Source of the DNA: Pristiophorus japonicus
Lineage: Eukaryota
Direction: 5' to 3'
Length of the DNA stretch: 64,000 bases
NCBI RefSeq assembly: GCF_044704955.1
Contig: NC_091981.1
Span: 264,926,001-264,990,000, forward strand
Shown: positions 1 through 54,244 of the stretch, piece after piece
Numbering within the stretch: the stretch's first letter is position 1
Layout of the letters: every line of letters starts with the position of its first letter
Notes under the pieces: generated by a model
Database searches by the model: none
What the model was told of the DNA's origin: nothing
The model's input: only the letters and a program-made list of their open reading frames with translations
Program-made: the position numbers and the translations under genes

Positions 1-1037
1 CTATGTCTAGATTTCTCAGTAGTATGCATCAGATATTCTTAAACATAGTGATGACTTTCCATTTGTATCAGCACCCAGCTGATAAAAAAAATCAAGCCTG
101 AGCAATAGTCACGTGTGTAATTTATAGAAGAGTGCCTAATATAGGTAAAAACCGGGATGAGATCCTACATGCTGAATTTAGGGAGCGAGGAGTGAAATTA
201 AAAAGTTGGACCTCAAAGGTAGTAATCTCAGGATTGCTACCAGTGCCACGTGCCAGTCAGAGTAGGAATTGCAGGATAGCTAAGATGAATACGTGGCTTG
301 AGGAATGGTGCAAGAGGGAGGGATTCAAATTCCTGGGACATTGGAACTGGTTTTGGAGGAGGTGGGACCAGTACAAACCAGACGGTCTGCACCCGGGCAG
401 GACTGGAACCAATGTCCTAGGGGGAGTGTTTGCTAGTGCTGTTGGGGAGGAGTTAAACTAATATTGCAGGGGATGGGAACCTATGCAGGGAGACAGGGGG
501 AAGTAGAATGGGGGCAGAAGCAAAAAATAGAAAGGAGAAAAGGAAAAGTGGAGGGCAGAGAAACCCAAGGCAAAAATCAAAAAGGGCCACATTACAACAA
601 AATTCTAAAGGGACCAAGTGTGGCAAAAAGACAATCCTGAAGGCTCTGTGCCTCAGTGCAAGGAGTATTCATAATAAGGTCGACGAATTAACTACGCAGG
701 CAGCTATTAACGAATATGATATAATTGGCATTACGGAGACATGGCTCCAGGGTGACCAAAGCCGGGAACTCAACATCAAGTGGTATTCAACATTGAGGAA
801 GGATAGACAGAAAGGAAAAGGAGGTGGGGTAGCGTTACTGATTAAAGAGGAGATTAACGCAATAGTAAGGAAAGACATTAGCTTGGATGATGTGGTATCT
901 ATATGGATAGAGCTGCGAAATACCAAAGGGCAGAAAACGTTAGTGGGAGTTGTGTACAGACCACCAAACTGTAGTAGTGACGTTGGGGATGACATCAAAC
1001 AGGAAATTAGGGATGTGTGCAATAAAGATACAGCAGT

Positions 1038-2883: not shown

Positions 2884-5436
2884 AAAAAGCAACAAACTTG
2901 ATGACTGGGAGAATTCAGCAGAGGAGGACAAAGGGTTTAATTAGGAGGGGGAAATACAGTATGAGAGGAAGCTTGCTGGGAACATAAAAACTGACAGCAA
3001 AAGCTTCTATAGATATGTGAAGAGAAAAAGATTAGTGAAGACAAACGTAGGTCCCTTGCAGTCAGAATCAGGGGAATTCATAATGGGGAACAAAGAAATG
3101 GCAGACCAATTGAACAAATACATTGGTTCTGTCTTCACGAGGGAAGACACAAATAACCTTCCGGAAATACTAGGGGACCGAGGGTCGAGTGAGAAGGAGG
3201 AACTGAAGGAAATCCTTATTAGTCAGGAAATTGTGTTAGGGAAATTGATGGGATTGAAGGCCAATAAATCCCCAGGGCCTGATAGTCTGCATCCCAGAGT
3301 ACTTAAGGAAGTTGCCTAGAAATAGTGGATGCATTGGTGATCATTTTCCAGCAGTCTTATCAAATCTGGATCAGTTCCTATGGACTGGAGGGTAGCTAAT
3401 GTAACACCACTTTTTAAGAAAGGAGGGAGAGAGAAAACGGGGAATCGGTTAGCCTGACATCGGTAGTGGGGAAAATGTTGGAATCAATTATTAAAGATGA
3501 AATAGCAGCGCATTTGGAAAGCAGTGACAGGATCGGTCCAAGTCAGCATGGATTTACGAAAGGGAAATCATGCTTGACAAAACTTCTAGAATTTTTTAAG
3601 GATGTAACTAGTAGAGTGGACAAGGGAGAACCAGTAGATGTGGTGTATTTGGACTTTTGAAAGGCTTTTGACAAGGTCCCACATAAGAGATTGGTGTGCA
3701 AAATTAAACCACATGGTATTGGGAGTAATGTATTGACGTGGATAGAGAACTGGTTGGCAAACAGGAAGCAGAGAGTTGGGATAAATGGGTCCTTTTCAGA
3801 ATGGCAGGCAGTGACTAGTGGGGTGCCGCAGGGCTCACTGCTGGGACCCCAGCTATATACAATATACATCAATGATTTAGATGAAAAAATTGAGTGTAAT
3901 ATCTCCAAGTTTGCAGATGACACTAAGCTGGGTGGCGGTGTGAGCTGTGAGGAGGATGTTAAGAGGCTGCAGGGCGACTTGGACAGGTTAGGGAGTGGGC
4001 AAATGCATGGCAGATGCAGTATAATGTGGATAAATGTGAGGTTATCCACTTTGGTAGTAAAAACACAAAGGCAGAATATTATCTGAATGGCGGCGGATTA
4101 GGAAAAGGGGAGCTGCAATGAGACCTGGGTGTCATGGTACATCAATCATTGAAAGTTGGCATGCAGGTACAGCAGGCGGTGAAGAAGACAAATGGCATGT
4201 TGGCCTTCATAGTTAGGGGATTTGAGTTTAGGAGCAGGGAGGTCTTACTGTAGTTGTACAGGGCCTTGGTGAGGCTTCACCTGAAATATTGTGTTCAGTT
4301 TTGGTCTCCTAATCTGAGGAAGGACATTCTTGCTATTGAGGGAGTGCAGTGAAGATTCACCACACTGATTCCCGGGATGGCAGGACTGACAGATGAGGAG
4401 AGACTGGATCGACTGGGCCTGTATTCACTGGAGTTTAGAAGGATGAGAGGGGATCTCATAGAAACATATAAAATTCTGACGGGATTGGACAGGTTAGATG
4501 CAAGAAGAATGTTCCTGATGTTGGGGAAGTCCAGAACCAGGGGACACAGTCTAAGGATAAGGGGTAAGCCATTTAGGACTGAGATGAGGAGAAACTTCTT
4601 CACTCAGAGAGTTGTTAACCTGTCGAATTCTCTACTGCAGAGAGTTGTTGATGCCAGTTCGTTGGATATATTCAAGAGGGAGTTAGATATGGCCCTTACG
4701 GCTAAAGAGATCAAGGGGTATGGAGAGAAAGCAAGAAAGGGGTACTGAGGTGAATGATCTGCCATGATATTATCGAATGGTGGTGCAGGCTCGAAGGGCC
4801 GAATGGCCTACTCCTACACCTATTTTCTATGTTTCTATGGGCCCAAGTTTCCACATAATTCGCGCCTGATTTTTAGGAGCAACTGGTGGAGAACGGACTA
4901 TTTTAGAAATCGCAATTTTCCACATTTTTTTTCCCGCAGTTCTAGTCAGGTAGAACAGTTCTAGTTTAGAACTGAATTTTTTCTTCAAAAGGGGGCGTGT
5001 CCGGCCACTGACGCCTGATTTGAAAGTTTCCACAGTGAAAATGTACTCCAAACTAAAGTAGAATGGAGCCAATGAAGATTTTTGTGGAACTGAAAAAACC
5101 TGTTCTACACATTAAAAAATCAGGCGCAGGTTACAAATTAGGCGTCCAGAACGAGGTGGGGGGGAGGGGGGGCGGGGGAAGGGAACATTAAATTCGACAA
5201 TAAATCCTTATTTATACTTCTACAAATATTACACAAATAAATCCAACCTGAATAAACATTTATAAGCCAAGAAAAGATTAAATAAACCATCTTCCTACCT
5301 GTGTGAAAGTGCTTCAGCCAGGGATAATTCTGCATCCGTTCGTGCCGCTGAGCGGGAGGAGGGGGAAGAAAGCTGTTCGTGTCGCTGAGCGGGAGGGGGA
5401 GAGAGAGAGAGAGGGAGGGAGAGAGAGAGAGGGGGG

Positions 5437-5729
5437 NNNNNNNNNNNNNNNNNNNNNNNNNNNNNNNNNNNNNNNNNNNNNNNNNNNNNNNNNNNNNNNN
5501 NNNNNNNNNNNNNNNNNNNNNNNNNNNNNNNNNNNNNNNNNNNNNNNNNNNNNNNNNNNNNNNNNNNNNNNNNNNNNNNNNNNNNNNNNNNNNNNNNNNN
5601 NNNNNNNNNNNNNNNNNNNNNNNNNNNNNNNNNNNNNNNNNNNNNNNNNNNNNNNNNNNNNNNNNNNNNNNNNNNNNNNNNNNNNNNNNNNNNNNNNNNN
5701 NNNNNNNNNNNNNNNNNNNNNNNNNNNNN
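5437..5729. other. Assembly gap (293 N) inside a GA/G-rich repeat
   Basis: Run of N flanked by (GA)n/G-rich sequence. Confidence 0.99.
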
Positions 5730-5779
5730 GGGAGAGAAAGAGGGGGGGAGAGAGAGAGGGGGGAAGAGAGAGGGGAGGG

Positions 5780-6165
5780 CGGGTCGGGTCGGGGAACAGG
5801 AGCGCGGGTCGGGTCAGTCGTGGGGGTGGAGCAGGTCTCGGATCTCGGGTCGGGGGTGGGGGGGAGCGGGTGTCGGGTCGGGGCGGGGGGGGAGCGGGTC
5901 TCGGGTCTCGGGTCAGGGCGGGGTGGCGGGGGGGAGCGGGTGTCGGGTCGGGTCGGGGCGGGGGGGGAGCGGGTGTCGGGTCGGGGCGGCGGGGGGGAGC
6001 GGGTGTCGGGTCGGGGCGCGGTGGGGGGAGCGGGTCTCGGGTCGGGGCGGGGGAGCGGGTGTCTGGTCGGCGGGGGGTGGTGGGGGGAGCGGGTGTCGGG
6101 TCGGGTCTGGTCAGCGGGGGTGGGGGGTGGGGAGCGGGTATCGGGTCTTGTCGGGGGCGGGGAGC
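5780..6165 (+). repeat. G-rich minisatellite, unit about 27-32 bp (GGGGGAGCGGGTGTCGGGTCGGGGCG), internal to the MITE
   Basis: About a dozen imperfect tandem units visible. Confidence 0.9.
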
Positions 6166-6597
6166 AGGAGCTGGCCGTGGGAGGAGCCTTATTCACGCAG
6201 CCCCAGTGAGGCCATTGGGCCAGGGCTAGGGGCTGCGTGCTTCGGGCCCCTCCCACACAGTTCGGCGCCTGGAGCTACTGCACTTGCGTGCCGACTGTAG
6301 CGCGCATGTGCAGAGGTCCCGGCACTGTTTTCAGCGCCGGGACCTGGTTCCGTCCCCCCCACAGCTTGTGCTGGCTGCGCCAAGGGCCAGAGGACCTGTA
6401 AGTAGGTGGAGAATACCGAGGATTTTTTTAGGCGCCGTTTTAGGCGCGAAAAACTGCCGCCCAGCTCGGAGGGGCGCCCGTTTTTTTTCTTGTGGAGACT
6501 TGGGCCCGTAGTTTCTATGTTTCACATCCATGGAACCGTACCTCAGCTAGTGAATCAACGTTTTCAGAAAATGAGAAGGAAAAGAAAGCAAGACTTA

Positions 6598-23154: not shown

Positions 23155-26100
23155 GGAGAAGGCAAAAGAGAAGTAGAAAGAAAACGAAAGGTGACGTCAC
23201 AGCCAAGGGGGTAAGTGATTGGCTGGTGATTGGTAAGTAGTTTTTCTTTTTCTTTTTATATCAGTAAGTAACCTTTTAACATTGTTGTTGCCAATTTAAG
23301 TGTATCTAAGGGTTAAATCATGGCAGGACAGCTCGGACACGTGTTATGCTCCTCCTGTACTATGTGGGAAGTCATGGATGCCTCCGGTGTCCTTGACAAC
23401 TACGTGTGCAGGAAGTGCATCCGTCTCCAGCTCCGAACGGGCCGCATTGCGGCGCTGGAGCTGCGGGTGGATGAACTCTGGAGTATCCACGATGCTGAAA
23501 ATGACGTGAATAGCACATTTAGTGAGTTGGTCACACCGCAGGTAAAGGGTACACAGCCAGATAGTAAATGGGTGACCAACAGGAAGAGCAGTGCAAGGAA
23601 GGTAGTGCAGGGGTCCCTTGCGGTCATCCCCCTGCAAAACAGATACACTGCTTTGAGTACTGTTGAGGGGGATGACTCATCAGGGGAGGGCAGCAGCAGT
23701 CAAGTTCATGGCACCATGGCTGGCTCTGCTGCACAGGAGGGCAGGAAAAAGAGTGGGAGAGCGATAGTGATAGGGGATTCAATGGTAAGGGGAATAGATC
23801 GGCGTTTCTGCGGCCGCAACCGAGACTCCAGGATGGTATGTTGCCTCCCTGGTGCAAGGGTCAAGGATGTCTTGGAGTGGGTGCAGGACATTCTGAAAAG
23901 GGAGGGTGAACAGCCAGTTGTCGTGATACATATAGGTACCAACGATATTGGTAAAAAAAATGGGATGAGGTCCCACGAGATGAATTTAGGGAGCTAGCAG
24001 TTAAATTAAAAAGTAGGACCTCAAAAGTAGTAATCTCAGGATTGCTACCAGTGCCATGTGCGAGTCAGAGTAGGAATCACAGGATAGCTCAGATGAATAC
24101 GTGTCTTGAGGAGTGCTGCAGAAGGGAGGGATTCAAATTCCTGAGACATTGGAACCGGTTCTGGGGGAGGTGGGACCAGTACAAACCGGACGGTCTGCAC
24201 CTGGGCAGGACCGGAACTAATGTCCTAGGGGAAGTGTTTGCTAGTGCTGTTGGGGAGGAGTTAAACTAATATGGCAGGGGGATGGGAACCTATGCAGGGA
24301 GACAGAGGGAAACAAAATGGAGTCAGAAGCAAACTATAGAAAGGAGAATAGTAAAAGTGGAGGGCAGAGAAACCCAAGGCAAAAAACAAAAAGGGCCACA
24401 TTACAGCAAAATTCTAAAGGGGCAAAGTGTGTTAAAAAAACAAGCATGAAGGCTCTGTGCCTCAAGGCGAGGAGTATTTGGAATAAGGTGGATGAATTAA
24501 CTGCGCAGATAGCAGTTAACGGATACGATGTGATTGGCATCACGGAGACATGGCTCCAGGGTGACCAAGGCTGGGAACTCAACATCCAAGGGTATTCAGC
24601 ATTTAGGAAGGATAGACAGAAAGGAAAAGGAGGTGGGGTGGCATTGCTGGTTAAAGAAGAAATCAATGCAATTGTAAGGAAGGACATTGGCCTGGATGAT
24701 GTGGAATCGGTATGGGTGGAGCTGTGGAGTTCCAAAGGGTAGAAAACGCTAGTAGGAGTTGTGTATAGACCACCAAATAGTAGTAGTGAGGTTGGGGACA
24801 GCATCAAACAAGAAATAAGGGATGTGTGCAATAAAGGTACAGCAGTTATCATGGGCAACTTTAATCGACATATTGATTGGGCTAACCTAACTGGTAGAAA
24901 TGCGGTGGAAGAGGATTTCCTGGAGTGTATTAGGGATGGTTTTCTAGATCAATATGTCGAGGAACCAACCAGGGAGCTGGCCATCCTAGACTGAGTGATG
25001 TGTAATGAGAAGGGACTAATTAGCAATCTTGTTGTGCGAGGCCCCTTGGGGAAAAGTGACCATAATATGGTAGAATTCCTTATTAAGGTGGAGAGTGACA
25101 CAGTTAATTCGGAAACTAGGGTCCTGAACTTAAGGAAAGGTAACTTCAACGGTATGAGGCGTAAATTGGCTAAAATAGACTGGCAAAGGATACTCAAAGG
25201 ATTGACGGTGGATAAGCAGTGGCAAACATTTAAAGATCACATGGATGAATTTCAGCAATTGTTCATCCCTGTCTGGAGCAAAAATAAAACTGGGAAGGTG
25301 GCTCAACTGTGGCTAACAAAGGAAATTAAGGATAGTGTTAAAGCCAAGGATGAGGCATATAAATTGGCTAGAAAAAGCAACAAACCTGAGGACTGGGAGA
25401 AATTTAGAATTCAACAGAGGAGGACTAAGGGTTTAATTAGGAGGGGGGAAATAGAGTATGAGAGGAAGTTTGCAGGGAATATAAAAGCTTCTATAAATAT
25501 GTGAAAAGAAAAAGTTTAGTAAAGACAAACGTAGGTCCCTTGCAGTCGGATTCAGGTGAATTTATAATGGTGAACAAAGAAATGGCAGACCAATTGAATC
25601 AATACTTCAGTTCTGTCTTCACAAAGGAAGATACAAATAATCTTCCGAAGGTACTAGGGGACAGTGGGTCTAGTGAGAAGGAGGAGCTGAAGGATATCCT
25701 TATTAGGCGGGAAATTGTGTTAGGGAAATTGATGGGATTGAAGTCTGATAAATCCCCGGGACCTGATAGTCTGCATCCAAGAGTACTCAAGAAAGTGGCC
25801 CTAGAAATAGTGGATGCAGTGGTGATCATTTTCCAACAGTCTATCGACTCTGGATCAGTTCCTATGGACTGGAGGGTAGCTAATGTAACACCACTTTTTA
25901 AAAAAGGCGGGGGAGAGAAAACGGGTAATTATAGACCGGTTAGCCTGATATCAGTAGTGGGGAAAATGTTGGAATCAATCATTAAGGATGAAATAGCAGC
26001 GCATTTGGAAAGCAGTGACAGGATCGGACCAAGTCAGCATGGATTTATGAAAGGGAAATCATGCTTGACAAATCTTCTGGAATTTTTTGAGGATGTAACA

Positions 26101-36080: not shown

Positions 36081-36324
36081 TGTTTTATTCATTCATGGGA
36101 TGTGGGTGTCTCTATTTATTGCCAGTATTTATTGCCCATCCCTAATTGCCCTTGAGAAGGTGGTGGTGAGCCGTCCGTCTCTAATTGCCTTTGAGAAAGT
36201 GGTAGTAATTTCAGAAGGCAGTTAAGAGTCAACCACATTCCATACTCGATCAGCTCCGCGGGGCAGGCCACATAGTCCGCATGCCAGACACGAGACTTCC
36301 AAAGTCTCTGTGGTGGTGGCTGAT

Positions 36325-39300
36325 GTGCTGGCTCTGCTGCACAGGAGGGCAGGAAAAAGAGTGGGAGAGCGATAGTGATAGGGGATTCAATTGTAAGGGG
36401 AATAGATAGGTGTTTCTGCGGCCGCAACCGAGACTCCAGGATGGTATATTGCCTCCCTGGTGCAAGGGTCAAGGATGTCTCGGAGCAGGTGCAGGACATT
36501 CTGAAAAGGGAGGGTGAACAGCCAGTTGTCGTGGTGCACATCGGTACCAACGATATAGGTAAAAAAAGGGATGAGGTCCTACGAGACGAATTTAAGGAGC
36601 TAGGAGCTAAATTAAAATGTAGGACCTCAAAAGTAGTAATCTCGGGATTGCGACCAGTGCCACGAGCTAGTCAGAGTAGGAATCGCAGGATAGCTCAGAT
36701 GAATACGTGGCTTGAGCAGTGGTGCAGCAGGGAGGGATTCAAATTCCTGGGGCATTGGAAGCGGTTCTGGGGGAGGTGGGATCAGTACAAACTGAACGGT
36801 CTGCACCTAGGCAGGACCGGAACCAATGTCCTCGGGGGAGTGTTTGCTGGCGCTGTTGGGGAGGAGTTAAACAAATATGGCAGGGGGATGGGAACCAATG
36901 CAGGGAGACAGAGGGAAACAAAATGGAGACAGAAGCAAAAGACAGAAAGGAGATGAGTAAAATTGGAGGGCAGAGAAACCCAAGGCAAAAAACAAAAAGG
37001 GCCACTGTACAGCAAAATTCTAAATGGTCAAAGTGTAATAAAAAGGCAAGCCTGAAAGCTCAGTGCCTCAATGCGAGGAGTATTCAGAACCCAGGAGAGG
37101 GCTCTGAGCTAGTTAGAGTGGGTGAGAGCTCAGATGAACAGGACCCCAAGAAAGAATGCAAAAGGCAGGAGGCAACAGAGCAGAGTAGCACTGGGGTAAG
37201 TGTAAACCACAAGATGATAGGAAGGGACAATATGTATGAATATAAAGGGGCTGCAGGAGGGGTCAAAACTAAAATTCATGGTTTAAAAACTAGTATTAAA
37301 ACGCTCTACCTAAACGCACGCAGCATTCGAAATAAAGTAAATGAGTTGACGGCACAAATCATTACAAATGGGTATGATTTGGTGGCCATTACAGAAACGT
37401 AGTTGCAGGGTGGCCAAGACTGGGAATTAAACATACAGGGGTATCTGACAATTCGGAAAGATAGACAAGAAGGGAAAGGAGGTGGGGTAGCTCTGTTAAT
37501 AAAGGATGATATCAGGGCAGTTGTGAGAGATGATATTGGCTCTAATGAACAAAATGTTGAATCATTGTGGGTGGAGATTAGAGATAGTAAGGGGAAAAAG
37601 TCACTGGTGGGCATAGTTTATAGGCCCCCAAATAATAACTTCATGGTGAGGCGGACAATAATCAAGGGAATAATGGAGGCATGTGAAAAAGGAATGGCAG
37701 TAATCATGGGGGATTTTAACCTACATATCGATTGGTCAAATCAAATCGCACGGGGTAGCCTTGAGGAGGAATTCATAGAATACATACGGGATTGTTTCTT
37801 AGAACAGTATGTTGCAGAACCAACAAGAGAGCAAGCTATCTTAGATCTGGTCCTGTGCAATGAGACAGGAATAATAAACGATCTCCTAGTAAAAGATCCT
37901 CTCGGAATGAGTGATCACAGTATGGTTGAATTTGTAATACAGATTGAGGGTGAAGAAGTAATGTCTCAAATGAGCGTACTATGCTTAAACAAAGGGGACT
38001 ACAGTGGGATGAGGGCAGAGTTGGCTAAAGTGGACTAGAAACACAGACTAAATGGTGGCACAATTGAGGAACAGTGGAGGACTTTTAAGGAGCTCTTTCA
38101 TAGTGCTCAACAAAAATATATTCCAGTGAAAAAGAAGGGCGGTAAGAGAAGGGATAACCAGCTGTGGATAACCAAGGAAATAAAGGAGAGTATCAAATTA
38201 AAAACCAATGCGTATAAGGTGGCCAAGGTTAGTGGGAAACTAGAAGATTGGGAAAATTTTAAACGACAGCAAAGAATGACTAAGAAAACAATAAAGAAAG
38301 GAAAGATAGATTACAAAAGTAAACTTGCGCAAAACATAAAAACAGATAGTAAAAGCTTTTACCGATATATAAACGGAAAGGAGTGACTAAAGTAAATGTT
38401 GGTCCCTTAGAAGATGAGAAGGGGGATTTAATAATGAGAAATGTGGAAATGGCTGAGACCTGAAACAATTATTTTGCTTCCGTCTTCACAGTGGAAGACA
38501 CAAAAACCATGCCAAAAATTGCTGGTCACAGGAATGTGGGAAGGGAGGACCTTGAGACAATCACTATCACTAGGGAGGCAGTGCTGGACATGCTAAGAGG
38601 ACTCAAGGTAGACAAGTCCCCTGGTCCTGATGAAATGCATCCCAGGGTATTAAAAGAGATGGCGGAAGTTATAGCAGATGCATTCGTTATAATCTACCAA
38701 AATTCTCTGGACTCTGAGGAGGTACCAGCGGATTGGAAAGCAGCTAATGTAACGCCTCTGTTTAAAAAAGGGGGCAGACAAAATGCAGGCAACTATAGGC
38801 CGGTTAGTTTAACATCTGTAGTGGAGAAAATGCTTGAAGCTATCATTAAGGAAGAAATAGTGGGACATCTAGATAGGAATAGTACAATCAGGCAACATGG
38901 ATTCACGAAGGGGAAATCATGTTTAACTAATTTACTGGAATTCTTTGAGGATATAACGAGCATGGTGGATAGAGGTGTACCGATGGATGTGGTGTATTTA
39001 GATTTCCAAAAGGCATTCGATAAGGTGCCACACAAAAGGTTACTGCAGAAAATAAAGGTACGCGGAGTCAGAGGAAATATATTAGCATGGATAGAGAATT
39101 GGCTGGCTAACAGAAAGCAGAAAGTCGGGATAAATGGGTCCTTTTCGTGTTGGAAATCAGTGGTTAGTGATGTGCCACAGGGATCGGTGCTGGGACCACA
39201 ACTGTTTACAATATACATAGATGACCTGGAAGAGGGGACAGAGTGTAGTGTATCAAAATTTGCAGATGACACAAAGATTAGTGGGAAAGCGGGTTGTGTA

Positions 39301-40180
39301 GAGGACACAGAGAGGCTGCAAAGAGATTTAGATAGGTTAAGCGAATGGGCTAAGGTTTGGCAGATGGAATACAATGTCGGAAAATGTGAGGTCATCCACC
39401 TTGGAAAAAAAACAGTAAAAGGGAATATTATTTGAATGGGGAGAAATTACAACATGCTGCGGTGCAGAGGGACCTGGGGGTCCTTGTGCATGAATCCCAA
39501 AAAGTTAGTTTGCAGGTGCAGCAGGTAATCAGGAAGGCGAATGGAATGTTGGCCTTCATTGCGAGAGGGATGGAGTACAAAAGCAGGGAGGTCCTGCTGC
39601 AACTGTACAGGTTATTGGTGAGGCCGCACCTGGAGTACTGCGTGCAGTTTTGGTCACCTTACTTAAGGAAGGATATACTAGCTTTGGAGCGGGTACAGAG
39701 ACGATTCACTGGGCTGATTCCGGAGATGAGGGGGTTACCTTATGATGATAGATTGAGTAGACTGGGTCTTTACTCGTTGGAGTTCAGAAAGATGAGGGGT
39801 GATCTTATAGAAACATTTAAAATAATGAAAGGGATTGACAAGATAGAGGCAGAGAGGTTGTTTCCACTGGTCGGACTAGAACTAGGGGGCACAGCCTCAA
39901 ACTACGTGGGAGCCAATTTAAAACCGAGTTGAGAAGGAATTTCTTCTCCCAGAGGGTTGTGAATCTGTGGAATTCTCTGCCCAAGGAAGCAGTTGAGGCT
40001 AGCTCATTGAATGTATTCAAATCACAGATCAATAGATTTTTAAACAATAAGGGAATTAAGGGTTCTGGGGAGCGGGCGGGTAAGTGGAGCTGAGTCCACG
40101 GCCAGATCAGCCATGATCTTTTTGAATGGCTCGAGGGGCTGGATGGCCTACTCCTGTTCCTAATTCTTATGTTCTTATGT
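36325..40180 (+). mobile_element. Long CR1 with subfamily-A ORF1/leader joined to a subfamily-B ORF2; inactivated
   Basis: ORF1 esterase 36375-36872; two LNARSI motifs in ORF 36719-37402; EN and RT motifs to ~40093; TTCTTATG tail. Confidence 0.9.
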
Positions 40181-48346: not shown

Positions 48347-49881
48347 ATTGCTTTTTTTTGTAATTCTATAAAAGCCACTTTTGTAAAACTCCCAAGAAGA
48401 TACTCTGCAATTTTTGTGATGCTGAGTTTAATCAGTTTTGAGTAACTGATGGCATGATTGTTGAATGTGGTTTGTGGCCTTTATTCCCGATACTGCCATG
48501 GAATGTGACGGTTAGTTTGGTGTCTTGGAATGTCATGATTTGTAACCTGACGGAGATGTAATACAATCCATTGGGGTAGGTAACAGTGAGATTTTTTTTA
48601 AATTGAAGAACTTTGTTGATTGGTGTTGTAGTAGAATCATTGATTATATGTTTTTGGTAGGATTAAGATTTTGTTTTAAATAACCCGTGTAGTATATCTT
48701 CCCTGGTGTAGCTTCTCTTTGGAATTTGGTCAAGCTGAGGAGCACGGTTTCCATCCACCTACAAACTGACACTATTTCTCACAGAAAGCAAGTGTGTCAA
48801 TTCTGCTCATCACTCTCCTCATCATTGCGATTTCTTATGTGTAAAAGCAAGTTACAATTTGCTGTTTTGTGTGAATTGGGACAGATCACTGGGAAACAAT
48901 TAGTTTGGAAACAGAAGTTTCTATTGTGACCTGATCATTATGTCATGGGTTCCTGATGTCCAAACTGGATCTCGGTGTTTTTACAATAAACACGAGCTGC
49001 ACTCCTAACATTCTGTGTCAAATCCAGAAACAAAATGTGGATGGAATGGCAGTAACAAAACTTTGCACACTTTCTCTAGCACCCTCAGTTATTTAGAAAT
49101 AAATTACTGGAGTTCTGTCTAGGTCGTCTCATCACTTGGAACTCTTGTCTGCATATCAGCAACATTCAAAAACAGAAATAAGCAACATATACTGAGGCAG
49201 CATTTGCTGGAGAATGCAGTATACTTAGAAAAGCCTTAACTTGACTATTAGTACATTAAAACTATTTTTTCAAATCTTTCTGTGCTCCCAAGAACCAAGA
49301 TCAATGCCATGTGACTTTTATTCTTTGCCTCCAGCTGCACACTGTTATGCCAGATCCTGTACAAAAGACATGTCAATTGACAAGCCAGTCTGCTCTCAAG
49401 TGACTAAGGAAAATGTCTCAAAGTAGAAGCCAGCAGCACTACAACTGATTGCAGATTTGTTCTGTATTGTGACCCATTCAATTACTCAAAAATAAACTGT
49501 CCTAACAGCCCTGTGCTGAAGTTGCAAAGCACAAGAGCCAATAGAAACTAAGTTTCTGGAAAAAAAACACAAGTTCCCTGATGGGTGAAAATGGAGCCCA
49601 AAGATTTCGAGCAGTTGGGTAAATCGAAGTTCATTGCATTCTTTGAAGATGATCTGTTTTTGTTCCTCTGTTTCTCGAATGGTGCATAAACGCTGAATGG
49701 CCTGTTCCGATGCAAGATTTACAAGAATGGTTCCAGAGAGAGGGACTTCAGTTGTGTAGATAGACTGGAGAAGCTGGGGTTGTTAGAAACATAGAAACAT
49801 AGAAAATAGGTGCAGGAGCAGGCCATTCAGCCCTTCTAGCCTGCACCGCCATTCAATGAGTTCATGGCTGAACATGAAACT

Positions 49882-52680
49882 TCAGTACCCCCTTCCTGCT
49901 TTCTCGCCATAACCCTTGATCCCCCGAGTAGTAAGGACTTCATCTAACTCCCTTTTGAATATATTTAGTGAATTGGCCTCAACTACTTTCTGTGGTAGAG
50001 AATTCCACAGGTTCACCACTCTCTGGGTGAAGAAGTTTCTCCTCATCTCGGTCCTAAATGGCTTACCCCTTATCCTCAGACTGTGACCCCTGGTTCTGGA
50101 CTTCCCCAACATTGGGAACATTCTTTCTGCATCTAACCTGTCTAAACCCGTCAGAATTTTAAACGTTTCTATGAGGTCCCCTCTCATTCTTCTGAACTCC
50201 AGTGAATACAAGCCCAATTGATCCAATCTTTCTTGATAGGTCAGTCCCGCCATCCCGGGAATCAGTCTGGTGAACCTTCGCTGCACTCCCTCAATAGCAA
50301 GAATGTCCTTCCTCAAGTTAGGAGACCAAAACTGTACACAATACTCCAGGTGTGGCCTCACCAAGGCCCTGTACAACTGTAGCAACACCTCCCTGCCCCT
50401 GTATTCAAATCCCCTCGCTATGAAGGCCAACATGCCATTTGCTTTCTTAACCGCCTGCTGTACCTGCATGCCAACCTTCAATGACTGATGTACCATGACA
50501 CCCAGGTCTCGTTGCACCTTCCCTTTTCCTAATCTGTCACCATTCAGATAATAGTCTGTCTCTCTGTTTTTACCACCAAAGTGGATAACCTCACATTTAT
50601 CCACATTATACTTCATCTGCCATGCATTTGCCCACTCACCTAACCTATCCAAGTCACTCTGCAGCCTAATAGCATCCTCCTCGCAGCTCACACTGCCACC
50701 CAACTTAGTATCATCCGCAAATTTGGAGATACTGCATTTAATCCCCTCGTCTAAATCATTAATGTACAATGTAAACAGCTGGGGCCCCAGCACAGAACCT
50801 TGCGGCACTCCACTAGTCACTGCCTGCCATTCTGAAAAGTACCCGTTTACTCCTACTCTTTGCTTCCTGTCTGACAACCAGTTCTCAATCCACGTCAGCA
50901 CACTACCCCCAATCCCATGTGCTTTAACTTTGCACATTAATCTCTTGTGTGGGACCTTGTCGAAAGCCTTCTGAAAGTCCAAATATACCACATCAACTGG
51001 TTCTCCTTTGTCCACTTTACTGGAAACATCCTCAAAAAATTCCAGAAGATTTGTCAAGCATGATTTCCCTTTCACAAATCCATGCTGACTTGGACCTATC
51101 ATGTCACCATTTTCCAGATGCACTGCTATGACATCCTTAATAATTGATTCCATCATTTTACCCACTACTGAGGTCAGGCTGACCGGTCTATAATTCCCTG
51201 TTTTCTCTCTCCCTCCTTTTTTAAAAAGTGGGGTTACATTGGCTACCCTCCACTCCATAGGAACTGATCCAGAGTCAATGGAATGTTGGAAAATGACTGT
51301 CAATGCATCCGCTATTTCCAAGGCCACCTCCTTAAGTACTCTAGGATGCAGTCCATCAGGCCCTGGGGATTTATCGGCCTTCAATCCCATCAATTTCCCC
51401 AACACAATTTCCCGACTAATAAAGATTTCCCTCAGTTCCTCTTCCTTACTAGACCCTCTGACCCCTTTTATATCCGGAAGGTTGTTTGTATCCTCCTTAG
51501 TGAATACCGAACCAAAGTACTTGTTCAATTGATCCGCCATTTCTTTGTTCCCCGTTATGACTTCCCCTGATTCTGACTGCAGAGGACCTACGTTTGTCTT
51601 CACCAACCTTTTTCTCTTTACATACCTATAGAAACTTTTGCAATCCGCCTTAATGTTCCCTGCAAGCTTCTTCTCGTACTCCATTTTCCCTGTCCTAATC
51701 AAACCCTTTGTCCTCCTCTGCTGAGTTCTAAATTTCTCCCAGTCCCCAGGTTCGCTGCTATTTCTGGCCAATTTGTATGCCACTTCCTTGGCTTTAATAC
51801 TATCCCTGATTTCCCTAGATAGCCACGGTTGAGCCACCTTCCCCTTTTTATTTTTACGCCAGACAGGAATGTACAATTGTTGTACTTCATCCATGCGGTC
51901 TCTAAATGTCTGCCATTGCCCATCCACAGTCAACCCCCTAAGTATCATTCGCCAATCTATCCTAGCCAATTCACGCCTCATACCTTCAAAGTTACCCTTC
52001 TTTAAGTTCTGGACCATGGTCTCTGAAATTACTGTTTCATTCTCCATCCTAATGCAGAATTCCACCATATTATGGTCACTCTTCCCCAAGGGGCCTCGCA
52101 CAATGAGATTGCTAATTAATCCTCTCTCATTACACAACACCCAGTCTAAGATGGCCTCCCCCCTAGTTGGTTCCTCAACATATTGGTCTAGAAAACCATC
52201 CCTTATGCACTCCAGGAAATCCTCCTCCACCGTATTGCTTCCAGTTTGGCTAGCCCAATCTATGTGCATATTAAAGTCACCCATTATAACTGCTACACCT
52301 TTATTGCATGCACCCCTAATTTCCTGTTTGATGCCCTCCCCAACATCCCTATTACTGTTTGGAGGTCTGTACACAACTCCTACTAACGTTTTTTGCCCTT
52401 TGGTGTTCTGCAGCTCTACCCATATAGATTCCACATCATCCAAGCTAATGTCTTTCCTAACTATTGCATTAATCTCCTCTTTAACCAGCAATGCTACCCC
52501 ACCTCCTTTTCCTTTTATTCTATCCTTCCTGAATGTTGAATACCCCTGAATGTTGAGTTCCCAGCCCTGATCATCCTGGAGCCACGTCTCCGTAATCCCA
52601 ATCACATCATATTTGTTAACATCTATTTGCACAATTAATTCATCCACCTTATTGCGGATACTCCTTGCATTAAGACACAA
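49882..52680 (-). CDS. CR1 ORF2: APE endonuclease plus reverse transcriptase, 932 codons without a stop (true start lies further 5')
   Basis: LNARS, ITETW, YRPP, MGDFN, LDWV, SDH; [43 protein letters not shown]. Confidence 0.95.
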   Translation of the reverse strand: MCLNARSIRNKVDELIVQIDVNKYDVIGITETWLQDDQGWELNIQGYSTFRKDRIKGKGGGVALLVKEEINAIVRKDISLDDVESIWVELQNTKGQKTLVGVVYRPPNSNRDVGEGIKQEIRGACNKGVAVIMGDFNMHIDWASQTGSNTVEEDFLECIRDGFLDQYVEEPTRGEAILDWVLCNERGLISNLIVRGPLGKSDHNMVEFCIRMENETVISETMVQNLKKGNFEGMRRELARIDWRMILRGLTVDGQWQTFRDRMDEVQQLYIPVWRKNKKGKVAQPWLSREIRDSIKAKEVAYKLARNSSEPGDWEKFRTQQRRTKGLIRTGKMEYEKKLAGNIKADCKSFYRYVKRKRLVKTNVGPLQSESGEVITGNKEMADQLNKYFGSVFTKEDTNNLPDIKGVRGSSKEEELREIFISREIVLGKLMGLKADKSPGPDGLHPRVLKEVALEIADALTVIFQHSIDSGSVPMEWRVANVTPLFKKGGREKTGNYRPVSLTSVVGKMMESIIKDVIAVHLENGDMIGPSQHGFVKGKSCLTNLLEFFEDVSSKVDKGEPVDVVYLDFQKAFDKVPHKRLMCKVKAHGIGGSVLTWIENWLSDRKQRVGVNGYFSEWQAVTSGVPQGSVLGPQLFTLYINDLDEGIKCSISKFADDTKLGGSVSCEEDAIRLQSDLDRLGEWANAWQMKYNVDKCEVIHFGGKNRETDYYLNGDRLGKGKVQRDLGVMVHQSLKVGMQVQQAVKKANGMLAFIARGFEYRGREVLLQLYRALVRPHLEYCVQFWSPNLRKDILAIEGVQRRFTRLIPGMAGLTYQERLDQLGLYSLEFRRMRGDLIETFKILTGLDRLDAERMFPMLGKSRTRGHSLRIRGKPFRTEMRRNFFTQRVVNLWNSLPQKVVEANSLNIFKRELDEVLTTRGIKGYGEKAGRGY

Positions 52681-52864
52681 AGCCTTCAGGCTTGTTTTAT
52701 TAACACCTTTGTCCTTTTAGAATTTTGCTGTACAGTGGCCCTTTTTGTTCTTTGCCTTGGGTTTCTCTGCCCTCCACTTTTCCTCATCTCCTTTCTGTCT
52801 TTTGCTTTTGGCTCCTTTTTGTTTCCCTCTGTCTCCCTGCATTGGTTCCCATCCCCCTGCCATA

Positions 52865-53416
52865 TTAGTTTAAATCCTCCCCAACAGCACTAGCAAACAC
52901 TCCCCCTAGGACATTGGTTCCAGTCCTGCCCAGGTGCAGACCGTCCGGTTTGTACTGGTCCCACCTCCCCCAGAACCGGTCCCAATGCCCCAGGAATTTG
53001 AATCCCTCCCTGCTGCACCACTGCTCAAGCCACGTATTCATCTGCGCTATCCTGCGATTCCTACTCTGACTATCACGTGGCACTGGTAGCAATCCCGAGA
53101 TTACTACTTTTGAGGTCCTACTTTTTAATTTAGCTCCTAGCTCCTTAAATTCGTTTCGTAGGACCTCATCCCTTTTTTTGCCTATGTCGTTGGTACCAAT
53201 GTGCACCACGACAACTGGCTGTTCTCCCTCCCATTTCAGAATGTCCTGCACCCGCTCCGAGACATCCTTGACCCTTGCACCAGGGAGGCAACATACCATC
53301 CTGGAGTCTCGGTTGCGGCCGCAGAAACGCCTATCTATTCCCCTCACAATTGAATCCCCTATCACTATCGCTCTCCCACTCTTTTTCTTGCCCTCCTGTG
53401 CAGCAGAGCCAGCCAC
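52865..53416 (-). CDS. CR1 ORF1 SGNH-esterase domain (N-terminal zinc finger lost by truncation)
   Basis: IGDS, CLPGA, HIGTND, DGLH blocks intact. Confidence 0.9.
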   Translation of the reverse strand: MAGSAAQEGKKKSGRAIVIGDSIVRGIDRRFCGRNRDSRMVCCLPGARVKDVSERVQDILKWEGEQPVVVVHIGTNDIGKKRDEVLRNEFKELGAKLKSRTSKVVISGLLPVPRDSQSRNRRIAQMNTWLEQWCSREGFKFLGHWDRFWGRWDQYKPDGLHLGRTGTNVLGGVFASAVGEDLN

Positions 53417-54244
53417 GGTGCCATGAACTTGGCTGCTGCTGCCCTCCCTGATGAGTCATTCCCCTCCTTAGAGCAGGGAAGGTTGAGAAGAGATTTAATA
53501 AAGGTGTCCAAAATCATGATGGTCTGGACAGAGTAGATAGAGAGAAACTGTTCCCATTGGAAGAAGGGTCACGAACCAGAGGACACAGATTTAAGATGAT
53601 TGGCAGAAGAACCAAAGGCGACATGAGGGAAAACATTTTTACGCAGCCACTGGTTAGGATCTGGAATGCACTGCCTGAGAGTGTGGTGGAGGCAGATTGA
53701 ATCATGGCTTTCAAAAAGGAATTGAATAAGTACCTGACGGGAAAAAAGAATTGCAGGGCTATTTAAGAAAGGGCGGGGGTGTGGGACTGGCTGAAGTGCT
53801 GTTGGCAGAGAGCTGGCACGGGCCCGACGGGCCGAATGGCCTCCTTCTGCACTGTAGCCATTCTATGATTCTAAGTAACAAAAGTAATCTTAGTAAGATG
53901 CAGTTCATTTGGGTTAGGAAAGTAGCAAATTTCCAAATAAAATAGGATATGACTGCACATTTGATCCATTTTTCTTATTTGCCACGATAGTTGCAACATT
54001 TAAAATAATTCATGATTTATTAGATGGTACATAAGAACATGGTGTGCTCTATATTCTATAATTACCCCTCTTGACAGTTTTCTTCCTCTTTTATGGAAGC
54101 ATGGATTTATTTCTTTGCACAAGTGGCATTATTTCAGCCTTGGCAGGAAATTCAACCGTGGAGATGGCATCATAGTTGAGTCCCATCCTACTCTTGCTCA
54201 GTGTCACACATGCACTTCCAACAGGAGGAGATATACAGAGGAAA

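Follow-up and report, generated by a model that had tools for sequence, protein, structure and literature searches.

CR1 elements in the window

The window, a 64,000-nt stretch of Pristiophorus japonicus DNA, is repeat-rich shark DNA and holds four copies of a CR1 element that include the junction between ORF1 and ORF2 (Table 1). The ORF1 fragment of the minus-strand copy, referred to here as the young copy, has 98% identity over 52865-53455 (-) to a P. japonicus protein, and the ORF1 esterase is homologous to the solved esterase of zebrafish ZfL2-1, 4C1B (E=9e-45). ORF2 carries an endonuclease (PF03372) and a reverse transcriptase (PF00078) by Pfam, and three copies end 3′ in short tandem (TTTCTATG)n repeats, without poly(A). 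The window ORF1 esterase stands apart from the ZfL2-1-like clade in an esterase tree, and the junction is, by eye, a close match to the published consensus row ScyCan_CR1-1a; the placement in CR1 rather than L2, read from this tree and the junction likeness, is putative.

Table 1. Positions of CR1 junction features in the four window copies
Feature	Position	Strand	Evidence
Slippery heptamer T_TTA_AAC, final two ORF1 codons (Leu-Asn), young copy	52868..52874	-	sequence
ORF1 stop TAA, adjoining the heptamer, young copy	52865..52867	-	sequence
Conserved two-tract G motif GGGGG-AT-GGG, 10 nt past the heptamer, candidate stimulator element	52848..52857	-	
G-tracts 3 and 4, found in the window family, not kept in other species	52825..52837	-	
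3′ part of ORF1 (SGNH/GDSL esterase), young 5′-truncated copy	52865..53466	-	PF13472 E=1.4e-14
Linker, ~60 codons in the -1 frame, from heptamer to endonuclease, young copy	52687..52864	-	
1-nt deletion in the linker of the young copy	near 52707	-	
ORF2 stop-free frame, 944 codons: APE endonuclease and reverse transcriptase	49882..52716	-	
3′ UTR of the young copy, ending in short (TTTCTATG)n repeats	49784..49881	-	
Second copy: G_TTA_AAC, TAA, G motif; -1 frame open into endonuclease	24260..24286	+	
Element of the second copy, near full-length: ORF1 start to element end	~23320 to ~27335	+	
Third copy: G_TTA_AAC, ORF1 stop lost, G motif; chimeric element	36866..36892	+	
Fourth copy: G_TTA_AAC, TAA, G motif with 1-nt deletion in first tract	452..477	+	
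11-nt perfect complement to nt 8-18 past the heptamer, in ORF1 of the 24260 copy	23625..23635	+	

Several other features of these repeats were noted. A 1-kb 3′ fragment (1874-2876), nested in the 452 copy, is 99.4% identical to 50785-49784 of the young copy, which points to recent activity of the young copy's subfamily. The third copy belongs to a chimeric insertion (~36303-40180, +), a single unit with a 4-bp duplication (AAAG) that lies inside another repeat, probably RTE-like. Its 5′ part is of the family studied here and its 3′ part of a second CR1 family, ~67% identical, the two being joined in the ORF2 frame at ~37085; the second part opens with sequence resembling the stretch past the G motif in a catshark row, and in this one case it is as if the reverse transcriptase had stalled at the G motif and switched template. 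Elsewhere, a 293-nt N gap (5437-5729) is flanked by a low-complexity tandem region (~5140-6300) that is very rich in G and contains many G4-like patterns.

The ORF1/ORF2 junction in the four copies

ORF1 of the young copy ends in TTTAAAC, which recomputed coordinates place at 52874-52868 (-), in phase and followed by TAA, and GTTAAAC was located at 452, 24260 and 36866 (+), as a preliminary description of this DNA had reported. The heptamer is in slippery phase as T_TTA_AAC in one copy and as the arterivirus-type G_TTA_AAC in three. Among the 196 codons of ORF1 in the young copy there is no other in-phase slippery heptamer; the 944 codons of ORF2 contain one.

The same description held that the -1 frame is open into the endonuclease in the 24260 and 36866 copies. 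Both are indeed stop-free, but the 36866 copy is the chimera: past the first endonuclease strand its -1 frame runs into the other CR1 family, and its ORF1 stop has changed from TAA to AAA. In the 452 and 52874 copies a 1-nt deletion each breaks the -1 frame, again as first described. From the heptamer on, the -1 frame gives an open downstream ORF in two of the four window copies, and this arrangement recurs in the stork and frog records described below. Because the four copies are 86-93% identical across the junction region, their agreement alone is weak evidence; the case rests on distant relatives.

Conservation of the heptamer in other species

We used the consensus table in the supplement of PMC13343379, covering the first 400 characters of each row, so that the junction is visible in 5′-truncated rows only. 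By eye, 18 of 27 heptamer-motif matches in the published CR1-group library lie at ORF1 ends; with one further row, from the control search described next, T_TTA_AAC closes ORF1 in 19 rows representing 12 species, likewise judged by eye (PMC13343379 supplement, excerpt): halosaur, bowfin, coelacanth, bullfrog, bearded dragon, alligator, crocodile, elephant shark, catshark, dogfish, sawfish, and stingray.

Since the library search had looked for the heptamer itself, we ran a synonymous control on Ala-Leu-Asn ends. GCT TTA AAC lies at the junction in 10 of its 12 matches, compared with none of three for GCT TTG AAC and none of one for GCT CTG AAC in the same library, and GCT CTA AAC and GCC TTA AAC have no matches there. 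One low-quality eagle row has AAT, without a clean stop. The four synonymous variants occur at no junction, and the heptamer is kept at its synonymous positions in consensus rows, in -1-frame reads, and at ORF1 ends.

The -1-frame reads come from predicted proteins, seven records from wood stork (SFKL) and four from poison frog (GVKL), all of them mis-spliced gene predictions with probably false introns. For eight of these 11 records a 0-frame ORF1 end can be fitted along 19-21 codons, which forces T/G_TTA_AAY_stop; as neither product contains the Phe/Val-Lys, the constraint acts on RNA. On the way to the endonuclease the -1 frame stays open, for ~45 codons in frog and ~90 codons in stork. We also searched proteins of 598-2000 aa for natural in-frame fusions, scoring the best 8000 candidates, and obtained mis-spliced gene models usable only as -1-frame reads. 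A tblastn search against plasmids and phages gave no match. CR1 contamination in GTDB genomes was considered and set aside, with two loci among 453 candidates, 28-29% identical and neither with the junction.

Among the published consensus rows, ScyCan_CR1-1b and ScyCan_CR1-14 start at or within the heptamer, and the junction may be a 5′-truncation hotspot. AldAff_Crack-2, labelled Crack, has by eye an esterase-type ORF1 end and the CR1 heptamer and is possibly misclassified.

ORF1 ends at the protein level

Among 120 matches listed, 81 ORF1 homologues that end 22-34 aa past the last esterase motif were counted, and 74 of these end in Leu-Asn-stop; those named come from sharks, rays, a chimaera, coelacanth, a teleost, frogs, turtles, and a snake. 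Ahead of Leu-Asn, ten residues are free to vary (positions -3 to -12, 1.9-3.0 bits). The remaining ends among the 81 are IN, VN, GN, LN plus one or three residues, or broken, and the exceptions among ORF1 ends examined are IN, VN, SN (two), and EN (three). Shark-type CR1 ORF1 proteins are also deposited under Pseudomonas aeruginosa (P0008) and Proteus mirabilis (P0099), and a frog-like one under a flatworm parasite (P0091); these are probably host contamination of those assemblies.

We built an esterase tree of 98 rows with the terminal region left out. From 97 anchored representatives, eight were dropped as frameshifted, truncated or mis-anchored, and nine named rows were added; 53 of 150 distant representatives had no anchor motif and were left out of the count. 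A vertebrate clade of 39 rows (98/95) has 38 LN ends and one VN end. A ZfL2-1-like clade of six rows (100/99) is without a terminal slippery dipeptide and is a natural negative control. In a distant clade of 53 rows (97/88) the ends are GN (13), LN (11), KN (8), FF/FL (8), or none of these (13). All end labels together require 22 changes on the tree, and the dipeptide classes interchange repeatedly.

LN, GN, KN, and FF/FL are the products of T_TTA_AAC, G_GGA_AAC, A_AAA_AAC, and T_TTT_TTN. One of these dipeptides lies 19-30 aa past the motif in 73 of 96 distant representatives, compared with 3-37 in nine control windows, a statistic that, like the others drawn from the esterase rows, overstates certainty because the rows are related. 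Within the 53-row clade, L, G or K precedes Asn in 22 of 27 Asn-terminated ends (background 0.29). The residue before the dipeptide has pyrimidine-ending rather than purine-ending codons in 12 cases versus 1 for LN, and in 0 versus 8 for GN; 2 of 75 LN ends follow a residue without a T-ending codon (background 21%), and Gln precedes 8 of 11 GN ends. As far as these sequences tell, the residue ahead of the dipeptide covaries as the first base of the heptamer would predict.

A G-rich motif downstream of the heptamer

Each window copy has four G-tracts past the heptamer, and the starts, at 11, 18, 31, and 41 nt, agree with those first reported. GGGGG-A(T/G)-GGG, corresponding to tracts 1 and 2, lies exactly 10 nt past the heptamer in seven rows (alligator, crocodile, elephant shark, sawfish, and catshark), one of which begins inside the heptamer, and the -1-frame reads of stork and frog have G-x-G at this register. 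In other, mostly noisier rows the G motif is at 7-9 nt or absent. Both glycine codons are GGG in the seven rows, which makes the two-tract motif look constrained at the RNA level; it may serve as a protein-binding site, fold into a two-tier G4, or provide one strand of a long-range duplex. Variable sites among the four window copies, counted at first, second, and third codon positions, are 0/5/1 in the first 47 nt of the linker, 10/7/11 in its remainder, and 24/15/45 in the endonuclease, small numbers that hint at RNA-level rather than protein-level constraint near the junction.

The stimulator originally proposed was a three-tier G-quadruplex formed by all four tracts, and we consider it unlikely that this drives a real frameshift. 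Synthetic and transplanted G4s stimulate -1 shifting on UUUAAAC (PMC3919603, excerpt), and the four tracts, present in 4/4 window copies, have a G4Hunter-type score of 1.4 (top 0.6% of 25-nt windows), with just one other such pattern on the young copy's sense strand (3.7 kb). They are not conserved together with the slip site, however: the third and fourth GGG are absent in 7/7 other-species rows with tracts 1 and 2 at 10 nt. The window G4 would have a spacer of 10 nt and loops of 2+10+7 = 19 nt, set against a spacer optimum of 6-8 nt and activity that falls by a 10-nt loop (Yu et al., PMC3919603, excerpt). By ViennaRNA the G4 is favoured, as the minimum-energy fold, in only one of the four copies, by 0.4 kcal/mol. 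Because of these spacer and loop limits, the folding results, and the missing tracts 3 and 4, the four-tract G4 is an unlikely stimulator and lacks support in the form described.

Other structures were sought around the junction. No pseudoknot or strong hairpin was found 5-9 nt downstream, where the best local folds are -7 to -9 kcal/mol, and Rfam over 52500-53100 gave two chance-level matches, none near the gathering score. A weak local hairpin (nt 8-29) has a pair probability of ~0.8 in the 24260 copy and is not seen in crocodilian rows. The complement at 23625, in the ORF1 codons Ile-Pro-Leu, would form a 12-bp duplex of -25.5 kcal/mol starting 7 nt past the slip site; 2/1000 shuffles equal it, but so do 2.8% of windows along the element, and it plays no part in the global fold. 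We treat it as a lead, a candidate long-range duplex partner. Of the candidate stimulators, the two-tract G motif combined with the stop codon next to the heptamer is likeliest.

Start codons in the linker and possible reinitiation

No linker AUG is common to all four window copies, and the AUG in TAATATGG sits in the +1 frame, both as the preliminary description had claimed. Two database gene models start at this +1-frame AUG; we rejected it as a start, the frame closing after 25-51 codons and the 452 copy having TTG. A splice-site reading (a branch-like CTAAT, then AG) was rejected on inspection, having no pyrimidine tract and no conservation.

Termination-reinitiation, the mechanism described for SART1 and L1 (PMC3894237 and PMC2881922, excerpts), would have ribosomes restart at UAAUG, at a near-cognate codon or at a linker AUG and make free ORF2p, with the heptamer and G motif serving the restart. 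Three published shark rows (ScyCan_CR1-1a, SquAca_CR1-17a, and -6c) have TAATG across the stop with its AUG in the ORF2 frame, a layout that protein P0250, starting MWQGDG, fits. Every window copy has at least one in-frame linker AUG, 51, 81 or 180 nt past the heptamer, the AUG at 51 nt being present in three of the four and also in skate protein P0251, and all seven stork records have a Met shortly before the endonuclease. A 60-codon linker would usually hold a Met by chance, however, and the window copies read TAATA at the stop, not UAAUG. No start-like codon lies across the stop in alligator, crocodile, stork or frog, and two of three frog records and the swallow record have no Met before the first endonuclease strand. 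Nor does reinitiation predict the X_XXY_YYZ pattern or the LN/GN/KN/FF switching. We consider it quite improbable as the explanation of the junction; it may be a side route.

In the young copy, AAG replaces the first linker AUG at 52817 (-), and the same replacement is seen, via the +1 frame, in P0252 and P0253. Being common to these two other Pristiophorus records, it looks like a subfamily trait, not decay.

A frameshifting model for CR1 ORF2 expression

We think it very likely, on comparative grounds, that programmed -1 frameshifting at the last two ORF1 codons would give an ORF1-ORF2 fusion and be the main route to ORF2 in the esterase-type CR1 elements of jawed vertebrates. The earlier frameshift and fusion reading stands in its conservation across jawed vertebrates and its slippery-dipeptide switching, but loses its G4 stimulator. 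The ribosome shift itself, its rate, and the fusion protein are what we infer. The shiftiest heptamers include U_UUA_AAC, G_GGA_AAC, and A_AAA_AAC (PMC5009743, excerpt). Most ribosomes would read UUA AAC, terminate, and release ORF1p (~315 aa). In a minority, Leu-tRNA and Asn-tRNA would slip back one base on U/G_UUA_AAC (tandem -1 slippage), and these ribosomes would continue through an unstructured linker into the endonuclease and reverse transcriptase. The predicted product is a fusion of ~1,300 aa with the junction ...EDLN-LIWQGDG..., and the enzyme would be scarce and carried into the ORF1p particle, as with Gag-Pol.

The same fusion could arise by a single-tRNA -1 slip of peptidyl-tRNA-Asn (AAC to AAA) at the stop, or by polymerase slippage on TTTAAA, an explanation to which we give little probability. 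The stop adjoins the heptamer in the vertebrate clade, and SN and EN ends would fit an A_AAC-stop rule; against this, constraint extends to the first base of the heptamer and to the Leu codon, the 53-row clade has its KN and FF/FL sites 1-14 residues ahead of the stop, and the homopolymer runs available for polymerase slippage are only 3 nt. A stop-dependent single-tRNA slip would give the same product and overlaps with tandem slippage, the explanation that we prefer. It is very unlikely that Leu-Asn is kept for the protein (as an esterase helix end, degron or binding motif), with the DNA pattern inherited or non-translational: L and N are nothing unusual at a helix end, the sequences have a common ancestry, and SN and EN ends exist, but the synonymous variants are absent, L, G, K, and F are alike in codon pattern and not in chemistry, the ZfL2-1 esterase (4C1B) and its six-row clade lack a terminal LN, and ORF2 translation is left unexplained.

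A broader reading is tentative, and we put it below an even chance: that a single ancient -1 signal runs through the esterase LINEs, with U/G_UUA_AAC-stop fixed in jawed vertebrates and G_GGA_AAC, A_AAA_AAC, and U_UUU_UUN switching in the sister clade, and with the vertebrate driver being the G-rich motif at 10 nt (through a bound protein, a natural G4 or a long-range ORF1 duplex) and not a pseudoknot. If so, the dominant transposon of birds, reptiles, and sharks would be a producer of Gag-Pol-like fusions, with a new natural class of stimulator.

CR1-group elements are the dominant retrotransposons in most vertebrates (PMC13343379, excerpt), and ORF2 translation from bicistronic LINE RNA is called an interesting and important open question in the excerpt of PMC3894237, where the options listed do not include frameshifting. 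We found no report of frameshifting in CR1 in the literature searched, to which the original CR1 papers do not belong; it is possible, at well under an even chance, that these papers (Haas 1997/2001, Kajikawa 1997/2012, Kapitonov and Jurka 2003, and Repbase Reports) had earlier remarked on the overlap or suggested frameshifting. The excerpt of PMC5009743 has no match to CR1; 'frameshift' has none in the excerpts of PMC2881922, PMC4120745, PMC3905857, PMC4316615, PMC13343379, PMC4176376, and bioRxiv 788562; and that of PMC11835228 mentions frameshifting for retroviruses only. If the frameshifting model is right, CR1 ORF2p is an esterase-endonuclease-reverse transcriptase fusion without a start codon of its own, which would change CR1 annotation, the design of an active CR1 assay or a CR1-based insertion tool, and the view of how the enzyme joins its particle. 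The natural -1 signals would also gain a very widespread member, one whose stimulator is unusual.

Comparison with known systems

Judged by its sequence, the junction site is real and deeply conserved; it resembles the -1 sites of retroviruses and nidoviruses and belongs to a LINE family for which we found no such report. Retroviral Gag-Pol and nidovirus ORF1a/1b have the same heptamers, at the end of a structural ORF1 and with the polymerase in the -1 frame, and G_UUA_AAC is the equine arteritis virus form (PMC5009743, excerpt). Unlike retroviruses and nidoviruses, CR1 is a non-LTR element with a G-rich motif at 10 nt, and no pseudoknot or strong hairpin was found at 5-9 nt. The frameshift idea has a non-LTR precedent, since the Dictyostelium elements TRE5-A and TRE3-A are stated to need a -1 frameshift for ORF2 (PMC5911963, excerpt); they are amoebozoan and of another lineage.

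SART1 (UAAUG coupling) and L1 (unconventional reinitiation) share with CR1 a bicistronic LINE RNA in which ORF2 translation depends on that of ORF1 (PMC3894237 and PMC2881922, excerpts). They differ in making a separate ORF2p, and UAAUG is absent in the window copies and in most CR1 lineages examined. Zebrafish ZfL2-1 (L2 clade, PDB 4C1B) has a homologous ORF1 esterase. Kajikawa et al. in 2012 reportedly proposed that ribosomes read through the ORF1 stop to reach its ORF2, a route whose product would likewise be a fusion. The recoding route of ZfL2-1 would differ from that of CR1, because the ZfL2-1 clade is without the terminal slippery dipeptide.

Arteriviruses carry a C-rich binding motif ~10 nt past the slip site. 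The CR1 motif, in contrast, is G-rich, and is a candidate binding site by analogy only with arteriviruses and cardioviruses, in which a trans-acting protein replaces the RNA roadblock in frameshifting (PMC5009743, excerpt).
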